Shown here: piece by piece, positions 43,657 through 59,824 of the stretch
Layout of the letters: each line of letters starts with the position of its first letter
How positions within the stretch are numbered: position 1 is the first letter of the stretch
Source: Escherichia coli
GTDB lineage: Bacteria; Pseudomonadota; Gammaproteobacteria; Enterobacterales; Enterobacteriaceae
Direction: 5' to 3' (one strand)
Assembly: GCF_041248615.1 (NCBI RefSeq)
Contig: NZ_CP158426.1
Length of the DNA: 64,000 bases
Position numbers and translations under genes: made by a program
Notes under the pieces: model-generated
Database searches by the model: none
What the model was told of the DNA's origin: nothing
What the model saw: the letters and a program-made list of their open reading frames with translations, nothing else

Positions 43657-43737
43657 AACCCTCTCCTTAGCTTATACAGATATCATTGAGTGACCGGTGT
43701 TGAGAAATCCGGTGGTTTAGGGGGATAGAGCAACAAT

Positions 43738-43755
43738 CGCACCACTCTTGCCAGG
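43738..43755 (-). promoter_or_regulatory. candidate sigma-54 (-24/-12) promoter for the ygfK operon
   Basis: minus strand reads TGGCAA-gagtg-GTGCG, with the GG and GC dinucleotides at consensus spacing, ~80 nt upstream of the ygfK start; inference only. Confidence 0.4.
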
Positions 43756-43807
43756 TTTGGCGGGAAATATAAAAAAATGTGAGGCGGCTCGAAACTTAAG
43801 GGCTTTT

Positions 43808-43823
43808 TGTGAATGAACTCACA
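43808..43823. promoter_or_regulatory. CRP-like palindrome upstream of ygfK
   Basis: TGTGA-atgaac-TCACA, a perfect match to the CRP core half-sites, ~55 bp upstream of the candidate -24 element. Confidence 0.4.
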
Positions 43824-43977
43824 GGTGCTAAATGAGAATTAAAATCACTCCTGAAAATTATTATTGCCAGCCCATTTATCAATTTTTCTCTTTTCTCAAA
43901 ATCAGTGATTCCTTATCATTATGATAATGAGTGCCGGAAGGATTAAATATTTGAACGCAATCGTTTAACTACGTTTT

Positions 43978-44556
43978 CTAAATTTCAGTATACCTTTCCT
44001 TCGCTGTAATAAAGTCGTCCGGAGTATCAATATCTAAAATTATTTCTGCATTTTCTATTTCGACGGAATAATGATCTCCCATAAGGAGTGCCTGACGCAT
44101 ATTGGTGACATTGGGTCGTTGGATTGCCTGCATCAGGCATGGTTTTGACACTAAAATCGGATGGCCGGGGATGCCATTATGGAGTGGCAGTATTGCGCCA
44201 TCATTTCGTAACGACCAGATTTTTCTAAAAATATCGATGGTGAGGGTTGGCATGTCACCGTGGGTGAGAAAACAATGTTCTGTTTGCACTGCGGGTACTG
44301 CGGCCTTGACGGATGTTAGTAAACCCTGCGCATAATCTGGGTTGTGAATAATAGTGATATTGCTCTGGTTCGCATAACGTTCGTGCAGTTCATTACCACG
44401 ATAGCCGGTGACTAAAATAATTCGGCTACAAAACTGCAACGCATTTTTGATACTTGTATCAAGAATTGTTCCCTGTTCCCAGGGTAACATCATTTTCCAT
44501 TGCCCCATTCTTGATGATAATCCGGCAGCGGTAATTATACAGTCGATGGCTGACAT
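43978..44556 (-). CDS. mocA: molybdenum cofactor cytidylyltransferase
   Basis: 192-aa ORF MSAIDCIITAAGLSSRMGQWKMMLPWEQG... Confidence 0.92.
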   Translation of the reverse strand: MSAIDCIITAAGLSSRMGQWKMMLPWEQGTILDTSIKNALQFCSRIILVTGYRGNELHERYANQSNITIIHNPDYAQGLLTSVKAAVPAVQTEHCFLTHGDMPTLTIDIFRKIWSLRNDGAILPLHNGIPGHPILVSKPCLMQAIQRPNVTNMRQALLMGDHYSVEIENAEIILDIDTPDDFITAKERYTEI

Positions 44557-44658
44557 AGTGGTTCCATTATTTATAGGGGCTAATAACGCCTGATAATTGC
44601 GTTACTTCCTGATGGATTAAGTTGGGGATAATTTATCCCAGAGAGGTCATAAAGACGC

Positions 44659-56227: not shown

Positions 56228-57102
56228 TGCAATTTTCCCCCCGCCGCGGCGACGGCTTCGCTAATCACTTTTTTGGTCATCGTCTGGATGAGATGCAGAC
56301 GAAACTCTTTACTGGCCCGCCATGAAGAACGCGGGGCGACATCTTGCAGGACAGATTCGCTGATAGCTTCCAGCGTTTGCAGGTTTAATGGCGCATTTTG
56401 TGCAGTCTGTTCGGCATGTTGGCAGCGAATCGGCGTTGGCGCGGCAACACCAAATGCCAGGCGTAATTCGCTGAAATTGCCGTTATCCAGTCGGCAATGT
56501 GCGGCGCAGCCAATCGTTGAAATATCCATTGCGTCGCGCATGGCATATTTAAAATGCGCGCTGCCCGCGTGTTCTTTCGGCTGTGGCGGAAAATGAAAGG
56601 CGACGAGGATTTCGTCATGCTCAAGAGACACTTTGCCCGGCCCGGTGTGAAAGCCATTAATCGGGACGAAACGAACACCGCGCGGGGAGTGGATCTCCAG
56701 TTTCGCGTCATAAATTAGCGTTGGCGTGGCAGAATCTGCGCTGGTGGCACCGTTGCAAATATTTCCACCGTAGGTAGCGACGTTACGGATCTGCGGTCCA
56801 GCAATGGACGTGGCCGCAGCACATAACGCCGGGAGATGACGTTGAGTTATAGGATCTTCTATTAGCTGGGTAAATGTCGTTGCAGAGCCGATACGTAGCG
56901 AGCCATCTTCCGCCAGCGTAATTCCCCGCAGCTCCGCCAGATTATGAATATCAACAATATGGCGATAACGGTCATTGTGATGGTGGAGCTGAATCAGTAC
57001 GTCAGTGCCACCGGCGAGCAGTTTGGCCTGCGGGTTGTCAGCCAGCAGGTTGATGGCATCGGCAAGGGTTGCTGCGCGATGGTAAGAAGCAAAATCAAAC
57101 AT
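56224..57102 (-). CDS. xdhB: xanthine dehydrogenase FAD-binding subunit
   Basis: 292-aa [37 protein letters not shown]... Confidence 0.93.
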
Positions 57103-57112
57103 GATGTTATCC

Positions 57113-59371
57113 TCAAATCAATCCTGCCAGATGGAACTCTTCATATAACCGTTTTGGCGTCAGCGGCAGTGTATTGATTGCAACACCGGTAGCCATCTTC
57201 ACCGCGTTACGAATAGCAGCGGCAACAGGAATTATTGGTGGCTCACCCAGTGACTTATGTCCGTATGCGGATTGCGGCTCATTGATTTCGACGAACGCGC
57301 TTTCCAGTTGTGGCAGATCCGGCATGGTCGGCATTTTGTAATCCAGCAGATTGGGGTTACGGACCACGCCGCTTTTAGCATCGATGATCATCTCTTCAAA
57401 TAGCGCCCAGCCAATGCCCATTCCCATTCCGCCGTGTACCTGACCTTCTGCCAGCAGTGGATTAAGAATATGCCCTGAATCATGAACGTTGAGGATGCGG
57501 TTGATGGTGACTTTGCACAGCGCAATATCGACCGTCAGATCAACAAAGGTACAGCCAAACGCCGGTGGGTTAGTGGTGGTTTTGATGGAGCTTTCAGCAG
57601 AGAGCTGCCCGCCGCGTTCAGGGTGGTAGAAAGCGTCCATCGCCAAATCTTTTAACGACATTAACGGCTCTTCCGGTCGTTCAACCAGCACGATATGGCC
57701 TTTTATCAGGGTCAGATTCATCGCTGACTGATGTAGCATGACTGCGGCGTGAGCGATGATTTTCTCTTTTAATAATAGTGCCGCACTGCGCAGCGCAGGC
57801 GCGGCAACATAGCTCTGGCGTGAGGCAAATGCGCCGGGATCGAACGGCGTAACGTCGGTATCTTGAGTTGAAATAACGCGAACGTCGCTGACCGGAACCC
57901 CCACGGTTTCTGCCACCATTTGCGAGAAGACGGTGTCGGCACCCTGACCGATTTCCGTCGCGCCGCTTTGCACGTTGATGGTTCCATCCTGATTCATCAG
58001 AAGGCGCGCGCCTGCTATTTCTACGCCGACAGGCCAGGTGTTAGAGGTGTAGCTAAAACAGGCGATGCCAACGCCGCGGCGCAAATTGCCTTGCTGGTTC
58101 TGGCATTCTGCACGGCGTTTTTCCCATTCAAAGATTTTCCGGCCTTTTTCAAGACACTCCGGCAACCCTGCGCTGTAAATACGTTTGCCCGTGAGCGGAT
58201 TAGCATCTCCTTCGCGGGCGGCGTTGCGTAAACGAATTTCAACAGGATCAATACCTAACGCTGTCGCGGCGTCATCAAGCATAGACTCAACGGCAAATAC
58301 GACTTGTGGCGCGCCATAACCACGCATCGCACCAGCCGAGGGGAGGTTGGTATAGCAGGTCTTTGAACTGTAAGCGTAGGCACAACGAGGATAAAGGTAA
58401 GCGACTTTATTCCCCCCCGCAGAAGCGATGGAGTGCCCGTGAGATGCATAAGCGCCGGTGTTAGACAGAACATCCAGACTATAACCTTTCAATGTTCCGT
58501 CGCGGTTCACGCCCATTTGCCCGTCAATGGTAAAAGCGTGGCGGGTACGGGTTGCGAGGAAACACTCTTCACGGCTAAGGGAAACTTTCACCGGAATGCC
58601 GCCAAGCTTGCTGGTCAGGAATGCCGCCATTGGCTCTTCCAGTACATCCTGTTTATTACCAAAACCGCCACCGACAAATGGTTTGATGACTCGTACGCAT
58701 GACCAGGGAATATCCAGCGCCTGACCAACCACGCGGCGAACAATGTGCGGGATCTGGGTGCTGGAAACGATGGTAATTCGCGAGTCATCCTCCATCCACG
58801 CCAGCGATGTTACGCTTTCCATGTGACAATGTTGAATAACGGGGGTCTGATAGTGCCCCTGTACCTGGTAGTCGGCGGCATCGATTGTTTGTTGGACATT
58901 ACCCGTCGACATCGTGCTTTGTTTCAGTAAATTGCCACCGTTATGGATTGGTGCAGCGTCTTCTGCCAGCGCCGCTTCTGGCGTGGTGATAACGGGTAAT
59001 TCTTGCCACTCAATGCTGACCAATTGCGCCGCTTTTTCTGCCGTGAGTTCATCGCGGGCCACGACGATGGCAACGGCGTCACCATGATGACGAACATGGC
59101 GAGTTAGCAGTGCGCGATCGGCGGTATCGCGCTTGTTTTCGTCAAGTGTCCAGGCATGCCCAGCTGTAGCGAATGGAATATCAGGCACATCTTCCCAGGT
59201 AAAAATCGCCAGTACGCCCGGCAAACTTCTGGCTTGTTCATCATTAATACTTACGGCATAACCATGTGCGATAGGGCTACGTACATATTTCGCATAACAC
59301 ATGCCCGCCATAACATAATCGTCAGTATATCGTGCCCGCCCGGTGACCTTAGCAATGGCATCGACGCGCAT
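57113..59371 (-). CDS. xdhA: xanthine dehydrogenase molybdenum-binding subunit
   Basis: ORF track 57113..59410; start chosen at MRVDAIAKVTGRARYTDDY (752 aa); an upstream in-frame ATG at 59410 with a stronger SD is an alternative. Confidence 0.9.
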   Translation of the reverse strand: MRVDAIAKVTGRARYTDDYVMAGMCYAKYVRSPIAHGYAVSINDEQARSLPGVLAIFTWEDVPDIPFATAGHAWTLDENKRDTADRALLTRHVRHHGDAVAIVVARDELTAEKAAQLVSIEWQELPVITTPEAALAEDAAPIHNGGNLLKQSTMSTGNVQQTIDAADYQVQGHYQTPVIQHCHMESVTSLAWMEDDSRITIVSSTQIPHIVRRVVGQALDIPWSCVRVIKPFVGGGFGNKQDVLEEPMAAFLTSKLGGIPVKVSLSREECFLATRTRHAFTIDGQMGVNRDGTLKGYSLDVLSNTGAYASHGHSIASAGGNKVAYLYPRCAYAYSSKTCYTNLPSAGAMRGYGAPQVVFAVESMLDDAATALGIDPVEIRLRNAAREGDANPLTGKRIYSAGLPECLEKGRKIFEWEKRRAECQNQQGNLRRGVGIACFSYTSNTWPVGVEIAGARLLMNQDGTINVQSGATEIGQGADTVFSQMVAETVGVPVSDVRVISTQDTDVTPFDPGAFASRQSYVAAPALRSAALLLKEKIIAHAAVMLHQSAMNLTLIKGHIVLVERPEEPLMSLKDLAMDAFYHPERGGQLSAESSIKTTTNPPAFGCTFVDLTVDIALCKVTINRILNVHDSGHILNPLLAEGQVHGGMGMGIGWALFEEMIIDAKSGVVRNPNLLDYKMPTMPDLPQLESAFVEINEPQSAYGHKSLGEPPIIPVAAAIRNAVKMATGVAINTLPLTPKRLYEEFHLAGLI

Positions 59372-59466
59372 GCATGATTCACCCGTAGCGGTTGCTTCCC
59401 GCGCTTCCATAGAAATCCCCTCGATTTGAACATTTGGTTCTTATGGCAAAGATTTAGTCTAAGCAG

Positions 59467-59481
59467 GCAAGATTTACGCCA
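59467..59481 (-). promoter_or_regulatory. candidate sigma-54 promoter for xdhABC
   Basis: minus strand TGGCGT-aaatc-TTGCC with GG-N10-GC spacing matching the -24/-12 consensus, ~45-85 nt upstream of the xdhA start. Confidence 0.45.
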
Positions 59482-59824
59482 GAAACGACGATAAGCGTTA
59501 GGGGAGGTAGGAAGTGTGATGACGTTAAAAAAACACAGATATGATACGAAACAGGACTCTGAATAGGGGCAGTGATACGTATCAATATGAGTGGCGATAA
59601 AATCAATGTGATAAATTGGGATTATTACGCATCAGGATGGGAAATAGGGTAAAAAGTCAGGAAGTTCGATACCTCTACAGCGAATATTTTGCTGATGATA
59701 CTTCCCTTTGCCAAATGAAATTAACCTCTTTCTCTATTACCACGTTTTTCCAGAAGCAAGAGATTGGGTATCAAGAGGCTGGCTGCTATGATAAGGCGTC
59801 TTGTTTTTTAAGCGAGGAAAGATT

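Follow-up and report, generated by a model that had tools for sequence, protein, structure and literature searches.

A proposed palindromic enhancer common to the sigma-54 promoters of the Escherichia coli purine/uric-acid gene cluster, with YgeV as its probable activator

The 64,000-nucleotide stretch of Escherichia coli DNA analysed here (contig NZ_CP158426.1; "the window" in the following) contains, according to RefSeq annotation and open reading frames, the uric-acid/purine gene cluster xdhABC-ygeV-ygeWXY...ygfK-xdhD, in inverted orientation compared to K-12; it aligns to E. coli chromosomes with 100% identity. With a probability of slightly below 0.8, this anaerobic purine/uric-acid cluster is served by genuine sigma-54 promoters, for which YgeV, whose gene lies centrally in the cluster, is most likely the activator, acting through a shared palindrome, TTATCA-N3-TGATAA, and accompanied by boxes resembling CRP sites. 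The sigma-54 promoters of xdhA, ygeW and ygfK and the idea of a YgeV regulon are already in print, the sites in Bonocora et al. (2015) and the regulon in Reitzer and Schneider (2001) and the YgeV iModulon of 2023, and this part of the finding is therefore already known. What is added here, a modest gain, is the palindromic enhancer by which these three promoters and two more can be linked to the neighbouring activator. The cluster encodes the anaerobic degradation pathway for uric acid and purines, has recently been tied to urate clearance in the gut, and is being engineered into probiotic E. coli in papers that call its regulation poorly understood. A defined enhancer sequence makes YgeV, which is among the last uncharacterised sigma-54 activators of E. 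coli, directly testable, and the enhancer, a corrected register of the ygfK promoter and the candidate CRP boxes are offered as an explanation for the silence of the cluster in glucose-rich laboratory media.

Occupancy by sigma-54 at all five promoters was taken from the literature. Chromatin immunoprecipitation sequencing (ChIP-seq) located sites upstream of xdhA (OS29), ygeW (OS30), ygfK (OS31) and ygfT (OS32) and inside yqeC (IS34), with fold-above-threshold scores of 11, 3, 26, 3 and 7, respectively, the xdhA site being listed as "confirmed" in EcoCyc (Bonocora et al., 2015; PMC4591121). Sequences and positions of these sites are identical to the elements in the window, and the published spacings between predicted transcription start and start codon (84, 80, 62 and 36) fit the window coordinates. 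Five ChIP-mapped sites within the 31-kb cluster compare with 0.9 expected from the genome-wide density (p=0.0025). Microarrays showed a response of xdhA and ygfK to rpoN dosage, and a sigma-54 site was proposed for xdhA (Zhao et al., 2010; PMC2831329); binding of RNA polymerase holoenzyme containing sigma-54 to the ygeV/ygeW spacer was detected by genomic SELEX (systematic evolution of ligands by exponential enrichment) (Shimada et al., 2021; PMC8743547). In PRECISE-1K (Lamoureux et al., 2023; PMC10602906), where Reitzer and Schneider (2001) are cited for sigma-54 promoters at xdhABC and ygeWXY, a YgeV iModulon comprises these operons together with ygfT and uacT. The same paper, citing a work with DeLisa as first author, states that ygfT expression is decreased in a ygeV mutant, and a requirement of ygeV for uric acid consumption is credited by Liu et al. 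to Iwadate and Kato (2019). The iModulon proposal is based on co-expression only, does not include a binding site and suggests ethanol as the signal, and the ChIP-seq study names neither activator nor enhancer.

The original prediction, made from the DNA sequence, had placed sigma-54 promoters upstream of xdhA, ygfK and, weakly, ygeW. All three strings it quoted were recovered on the minus strand, once each and within 1-2 nt of where they had been put, namely TGGCGTAAATCTTGCC for xdhA (59481-59466), TGGCACACTTATTGTT for ygeW (53560-53545) and TGGCAAGAGTGGTGCG for ygfK (43738-43753). A position-weight-matrix scan, which had been suggested as a check, was performed over both strands of the 64 kb with a sigma-54 matrix built from 38 intergenic ChIP-seq motifs (Bonocora et al., 2015, Table 1; four in-window sites excluded). 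It led to scores of 16.0 for ygeW (rank 1), 12.0 for xdhA (rank 4) and, for two overlapping registers at ygfK, 11.7 for register B (43745-43729; rank 7) and 10.8 for the originally predicted register A (rank 15). The xdhA, ygeW and register B scores lie inside the training range of 7.7-20.9, and ygfT lies below it with 6.3. Dinucleotide-preserving shuffles, restricted to the right spacer and strand, gave p=0.009 for xdhA, 0.0013 for ygeW and 0.010 for register B. About 15 matches in the window reach 10.8 or more, mostly within genes, and chance intragenic matches of 10-13 are common, so that GG-N10-GC by itself is weak evidence. GG and GC at a distance of 10 nt are present at xdhA and at register B; ygeW carries GG...GT, and in E. 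coli the ygfT and yqeC elements have TG and AG instead of GG. Two intragenic matches, at 4584-4600 (plus strand; 13.1) and at 39801-39817 (minus strand, inside ssnA; 12.3), score above the xdhA site and are not part of the published high-stringency ChIP-seq tables, indicating that sequence score is a poor predictor of occupancy. A near-palindrome at 61037-61055, CTTGCAAACCATATGCAAG, scores about 11 on both strands and is not in the published high-stringency list.

Comparison with other genomes, for which 80 loci around YgeW orthologues were retrieved and their genes mapped (L numbers below), was more informative. As judged from these alignments, conservation settles the promoter identity of the conserved -24/-12 elements. 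Upstream of xdhABC (minus strand; xdhA 57113-59410), the element CTGGCGTAAATCTTGCC (59466-59482, minus strand; predicted start at about 59455) equals ChIP-seq motif OS29, and CTGGCGTAnnTnTTGCY was kept in 8/8 separately retrieved orthologue promoters (Citrobacter, Kluyvera-like, Klebsiella aerogenes-like, Yokenella, Morganella, Hafnia, Edwardsiella and Aeromonas), where 44-78 nt lie between it and the start codon, in full agreement with the site first proposed. RefSeq starts xdhA with the ATG at 59410 (765 aa); the 84 nt given in PMC4591121 implies a start 39 nt downstream (59371-59410; 752 aa), and the annotated lengths of orthologues, 760-772 aa, speak for the longer protein.

For the operon ygeW-ygeX-ygeY-hyuA-yqeA (arcC) (53451 down to 47323, minus strand), the element CTGGCACACTTATTGTT (53545-53561, minus strand; predicted start at about 53534) corresponds to ChIP-seq motif OS30 and to the SELEX peak. 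The site is real, as had been predicted, and its description as weak did not hold, as it is both the best sequence match in the window and the best conserved one, with TTGGCAC-N5-TTG(T/A)T kept in 18/18 other gamma- and betaproteobacterial loci. At its -12 (53545-53549), 16/18 loci have GT or GA where the canonical element has GC, and L015 and L019 have GG. Read from this alignment, the non-canonical -12 (TTGTT/TTGAT) is a conserved property and not decay. The departure affects a base normally important for sigma-54 binding and coincides with a low ChIP occupancy despite the top matrix score.

At ygfK-ssnA-ygfM-xdhD (43656 down to 35530, minus strand), the predicted string proved real but its -24/-12 register wrong by 9 nt. 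The register of ChIP-seq motif OS31 (PMC4591121), register B, is GTGGTGCGATTGTTGCT (43729-43745, minus strand; predicted start at about 43718) and overlaps register A, which had also been used by Zhao et al. (2010). In the ChIP-seq register, xTGG(T/C)GxGATTGTTGCT was kept in 12/12 other genera with scores of 11.3-16.7, whereas the position homologous to register A scored -8 to -32 in the same 12 genera. Register A was thus rejected as a functional element, and by this comparison it overlaps the real site, 9 nt upstream of it, by chance and only in E. coli.

An alignment of the ygeV-ygeW spacers of eleven genera revealed the conserved palindrome TTATCA-N3-TGATAA. With up to 2 mismatches, it occurs nine times in the window compared to 2.3 expected, a number reached by 0/100 shuffles, and 6/9 copies are located at sigma-54 promoters, with one at xdhA, two at ygeW, one at ygfK and one at ygfT in the upstream spacers and one downstream of the yqeC promoter. 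The distance from the palindrome centre to the GG of the -24 is 127 bp at xdhA, 209 and 180 bp at ygeW, 177 bp at ygfK and 174 bp at ygfT; relative to the predicted starts, the copies lie about 150-235 bp upstream at these four promoters and about 223 bp downstream at PyqeC. A search for shared upstream repeats had been suggested as a check together with the original prediction, and such repeats were found, at about 125-210 bp upstream of the -24 and not at the 80-150 bp expected. When a matrix was trained on non-E. coli instances only, its six best matches in the 64-kb window all fell within the cluster, and all four promoter spacers contain a match of at least 16, compared to 0.02 expected in total from local shuffles.

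The ygeW enhancer (53729-53778; score 22.4) consists of copy 1, ATATCAATATGAGAA (53775-53761; centre -234), and copy 2, TTATCAAACTGAAGA (53746-53732; centre -205); it forms a conserved block in the eleven-genus alignment and was found in 17/18 other genera. At xdhA (59576-59617), a stronger copy, TTATCACATTGATTT (core 59614-59600; centre about -152; score 16.6), is followed by a weaker one, TATCAATATGAGT (59596-59576; centre about -131; score 6.5), and this pair recurs in the Kluyvera-like, K. aerogenes-like, Hafnia and Edwardsiella promoters. The perfect palindrome upstream of ygfK, TTATCATAATGATAA (43910-43930; core 43927-43913; centre -202), is the sole zero-mismatch match in the window, has the top enhancer score (26.8) and is kept in other genera. 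Upstream of ygfT, the uacT-ygfT spacer carries TTCTCATATTGATAT (28540-28560; centre -199; score 21.0). In nearly all other genera, the equivalent sigma-54 sites are likewise preceded by the palindrome, with a distance typical of each operon, and it was also observed at xdhA promoters unlinked to ygeV.

Co-occurrence with the activator gene was analysed with the E. coli-derived pattern only, allowing up to 1 mismatch. The palindrome was present wherever the YgeW locus also had a ygeV-like gene (17/17) and in 9/63 of the remaining YgeW loci (p=3e-11, uncorrected for phylogeny); it is rarer in this second group although the AT content is higher there. Palindromes in loci without ygeV (L025, L064, L065 and others) were inspected as possible modules and rejected, since no convincing sigma-54 partner was found. 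A betaproteobacterial Rhodocyclaceae metagenome-assembled genome (L013) has the same combination of enhancer and sigma-54 element at ygeW, together with a strong sigma-54 site that faces uacT (8140-8156, minus strand; 9735-9755; 9893-9909); a ygeV-like gene is absent within 10 kb, and the regulator is presumably encoded elsewhere. In the screened papers that mention ygeV, no application of TTATCA-N3-TGATAA to E. coli YgeV was found. Together with ChIP-seq, SELEX, rpoN microarrays and the iModulon, the shared palindrome supports the originally predicted connection of xdhABC, ygfK-ssnA-ygfM-xdhD and ygeWXY-hyuA-yqeA by YgeV.

That three-promoter regulon was nevertheless incomplete, as two ChIP-mapped sites had been missed, one inside yqeC (for yqeB) and one upstream of ygfT. 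PyqeC, an intragenic sigma-54 promoter in yqeC that drives yqeB, is TGAGCACGAACCTTGCA (45060-45076, plus strand; ChIP-seq motif IS34; predicted start at about 45087). Its function is established in the literature, where two silent mutations in the site abolished sigma-54 binding, yqeB mRNA and YqeB protein (PMC4591121). The element was kept in 8 other loci from 5 genera, in which the YqeC proteins are only 41-51% identical. An enhancer-type palindrome within yqeC, TTCTCAATGTGAGAA (45300-45320; score 17.6; about +223 from the predicted start), is located downstream of the PyqeC element at a spacing of exactly 240 nt, both in E. coli and in four further loci (Edwardsiella, Hafnia and Serratia). 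In these loci the encoded residues switch between S and Y and between E and D in step with TCTCA/TATCA and TGAGA/TGATA, and the codon in the 3-nt spacer varies freely. This pattern argues for selection on DNA rather than on protein and thereby suggests that the palindrome may serve as an enhancer in the long 5' untranslated region of the validated yqeB promoter. PygfT is the weak element TATGCCCATTTATTGCA (28722-28738, plus strand; ChIP-seq motif OS32; matrix score 6.3; predicted start at about 28749), the upstream site being listed as TATGCCCGTTTATTGCA in PMC4591121.

Between enhancer and promoter, CRP-like boxes were detected at -67.5, -77.5 and -97.5, positions that are kept across genera and differ by whole helical turns. 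The ygfK spacer holds two (43778-43823), a perfect TGTGA-N6-TCACA at 43808-43823 (centre -97.5), which is the sole zero-mismatch CRP pattern in the window, and a TCACA box at 43778-43793 (centre -67.5), both positionally kept across genera. At ygeW, TGTGATCAACCCCACA (53604-53619; 1 mismatch; centre -77.5) is matched by boxes between -76.5 and -78.5 in 13 further genera, and an engineering paper mentions that the spacer between ygeV and ygeW contains a native Crp site and that the pathway is repressed by glucose (PMC12507026). The xdhA box (59515-59530; centre -67.5 from the predicted start) has a conserved TCACA right half and was also found at -67.5 in the xdhA promoters of Citrobacter, the K. 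aerogenes-like genome, Yokenella, Morganella and Aeromonas; the ygfT box is located at 28673-28688 (centre -68.5). TCACA-half boxes at -67.5/-68.5 are thus common to ygfK, xdhA and ygfT. The consensus of IHF, WATCAANNNNTTR, gave three matches in the window, none of them in the spacers. CRP may act on these boxes as a bending or co-activating factor. PrpR/prpBCDE-type sigma-54 promoters also need CRP, the gene for the enhancer-binding protein being divergent from its target operon with catabolite control overlaid. The divergent regulator gene and the catabolite control are alike in both systems, but prp also uses IHF, whereas no IHF consensus and CRP-like boxes phased at -67.5, -77.5 and -97.5 were found here.

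As originally predicted, ygeV (53930-55708, plus strand) codes for a sigma-54 enhancer-binding protein. Pfam, NCBIfam and alignment showed a weakly GAF-like N-terminus, a PAS domain, a sigma-54 AAA+ domain with GAFTGA, a lid and a Fis-type helix-turn-helix (HTH_8). The AAA+ sigma-54 interaction domain (PF00158) covers residues 272-439 with E=2e-70, the Fis-type helix-turn-helix (PF02954) residues 548-587, and G347, F349, T350, G351 and A352 of the GAFTGA loop are invariant in the alignment. A receiver domain (Response_reg) was not matched in the Pfam search of YgeV, its N-terminus being weakly GAF-like plus PAS, and NCBIfam matches of the response-regulator type begin only at about residue 260. 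YgeV, alias IsrR, has been called a two-component response regulator (PMC9426417); for a protein without receiver domain, the published label "orphan response regulator" does not fit. A motif of three cysteines, C84-x2-C87-x5-C93, shows no variation among the eight aligned homologues, which range from E. coli to Desulfosporosinus, and could serve for metal or Fe-S binding or for redox sensing. In 14 other loci, ygeV and ygeW are likewise divergent neighbours, an arrangement seen in Edwardsiella, Pluralibacter, Serratia, Enterobacter, Hafnia, Kosakonia, Photobacterium, Cedecea and Erwinia.

For the Clostridiales, a sigma-54 enhancer-binding protein named DioR was predicted by comparative genomics (Nie et al., 2019; PMC6615313). 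It is encoded beside homologues of ygeW-ygfK-ssnA-ygeY, dpaL (ygeX), yqeC-ygfJ-yqeB and xdhABC, its predicted targets, and hence beside the same gene set as in the YgeV cluster. The enhancer sites listed for DioR (ATTTATCATAATGATAAGG, TATTATCATTTTGATAATA) are the same TTATCA-N3-TGATAA palindrome, although assigned independently. The DioR regulon differs in belonging to another phylum, in having a canonical -12 TTGCT and in not involving CRP, compared to the non-canonical ygeW -12 and the CRP-like boxes of E. coli. A cluster-linked enhancer-binding protein of Desulfosporosinus (L052), taken as a stand-in for DioR itself, is 36% identical to YgeV over the full length, with the same length, architecture and cysteine motif. 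On balance we lean towards YgeV being the proteobacterial counterpart of DioR, and thus an ancient activator of the selenium/molybdenum uric-acid pathway that would use the same enhancer across phyla. In the Enterobacterales it would serve at least five promoters, each with enhancer, a phased CRP box replacing IHF and a -24/-12 element, with one enhancer located downstream in the yqeC coding sequence and the ygeW -12 deliberately non-canonical.

Several points weigh against the assignment to YgeV. The co-occurrence statistic lacks a phylogenetic correction, and the recognition helix of YgeV, ATLYRKIKKY, is of a type common among enhancer-binding proteins, so that the motif is not predicted from the helix itself. 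The boxes at -67.5 match CRP in one half-site only, the ygfT element matches poorly (6.3), the ygeW element has a low ChIP occupancy (score 3), and it is unusual for an enhancer to lie downstream of its promoter, as at yqeC. Finally, PyqeC is induced under nitrogen limitation (PMC4591121), which could point to another activator. The promoters might then be real but activated by a different enhancer-binding protein, for example NtrC under nitrogen limitation, with YgeV having the indole- and LEE- (locus of enterocyte effacement) related role proposed for it as IsrR. The increase of PyqeC transcripts under nitrogen limitation, the use of purines as nitrogen sources and the mBio 2022 paper, which ties ygeV to indole and virulence genes and not to purines, would agree with this. 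However, NtrC-type sites (TGCACC-N4-TGGTGCA, up to 3 mismatches) gave 19 matches in the window compared to 24 expected, and none of them in the spacers; across genera, the presence of the palindrome follows that of ygeV, its sequence is that of the motif assigned to the cluster-linked Clostridiales protein, and ygeV adjoins ygeW divergently in 14 other loci. We regard another activator as unlikely.

It is very unlikely that a factor other than YgeV, for instance a repressor or a Fur-like or GATA-box binder, occupies the palindrome, which would make it a co-regulatory operator instead of a sigma-54 enhancer. The half-site TGATAA resembles Fur-box hexamers, and L025, L064 and L065 show a promoter-proximal motif with no ygeV-like gene in the flanks and no good sigma-54 site nearby. 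Nevertheless, the half-sites are inverted relative to the 7-1-7 arrangement of Fur, the motif is always accompanied by a sigma-54 site in proteobacteria, its distance to the -24 is conserved per operon (about 210 bp at ygeW, 150-180 at ygfK and 130-150 at xdhA), and the DioR assignment was made independently. That the elements are chance GG-N10-GC matches or inert "parking" sites of sigma-54, with the operons transcribed from sigma-70 promoters, would fit the frequent intragenic matches of 10-13 and the many ChIP-mapped sigma-54 sites without demonstrated transcript (PMC4591121), but is highly improbable, as sigma-70-like matches in the xdhA, ygeW and ygfK spacers did not exceed shuffles and none was suitably placed on the sense strand, the sigma-54 elements are conserved, with a constant spacing to the start codons, in as many as 18 genera, and PyqeC is proven by mutation.

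With YgeV as the preferred activator, sigma-54 RNA polymerase would sit on these promoters as a closed complex and require an ATPase activator to start. This is most likely YgeV as a PAS-AAA+-helix-turn-helix enhancer-binding protein, whose dimers would bind TTATCA-N3-TGATAA, usually as one strong copy and a weaker one 20-30 bp away, with the centre some 150-235 bp upstream of the start for xdhA, ygeW, ygfK and ygfT and 223 bp downstream at the yqeC promoter. The CRP-type boxes on the same helical face probably supply a DNA bend, a role proposed because no IHF site is present, as well as catabolite control. In this scheme we infer YgeV on the palindrome, CRP on the boxes and the nature of the inducing signal.

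Additional palindromes were observed in coding and distant sequence. One in ygeX/dpaL, ATATCAAGATGATAT (51914-51934; score 16.6), counted among the nine copies in the window, lies about 275 nt into the gene; L004, L012 and L014 have similar matches at the equivalent position. It could be a further YgeV site or a coding coincidence. In Edwardsiella and Hafnia, a strong enhancer-matrix match located past ygeV at a distance of about 2.2-2.7 kb (L002:5401-5421, L004:5408-5428 and L007:4983-5003) was rejected as it falls inside a conserved 943-aa open reading frame; it is probably a coding-sequence coincidence, and intragenic matches thus have to be treated with care. Outside the cluster, CTATCAATGTGATCA (63529-63549; score 15.0) and TTATGATATTGAAAA (1962-1982; score 11.4) have no known relation to sigma-54 sites. 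Among the remaining genes of the region, yqeB and yqeC are on the plus strand and mocA is on the minus strand, and xanQ, guaD, ghxQ, ygfS, ygfT and uacT are located left of the ygfK operon.

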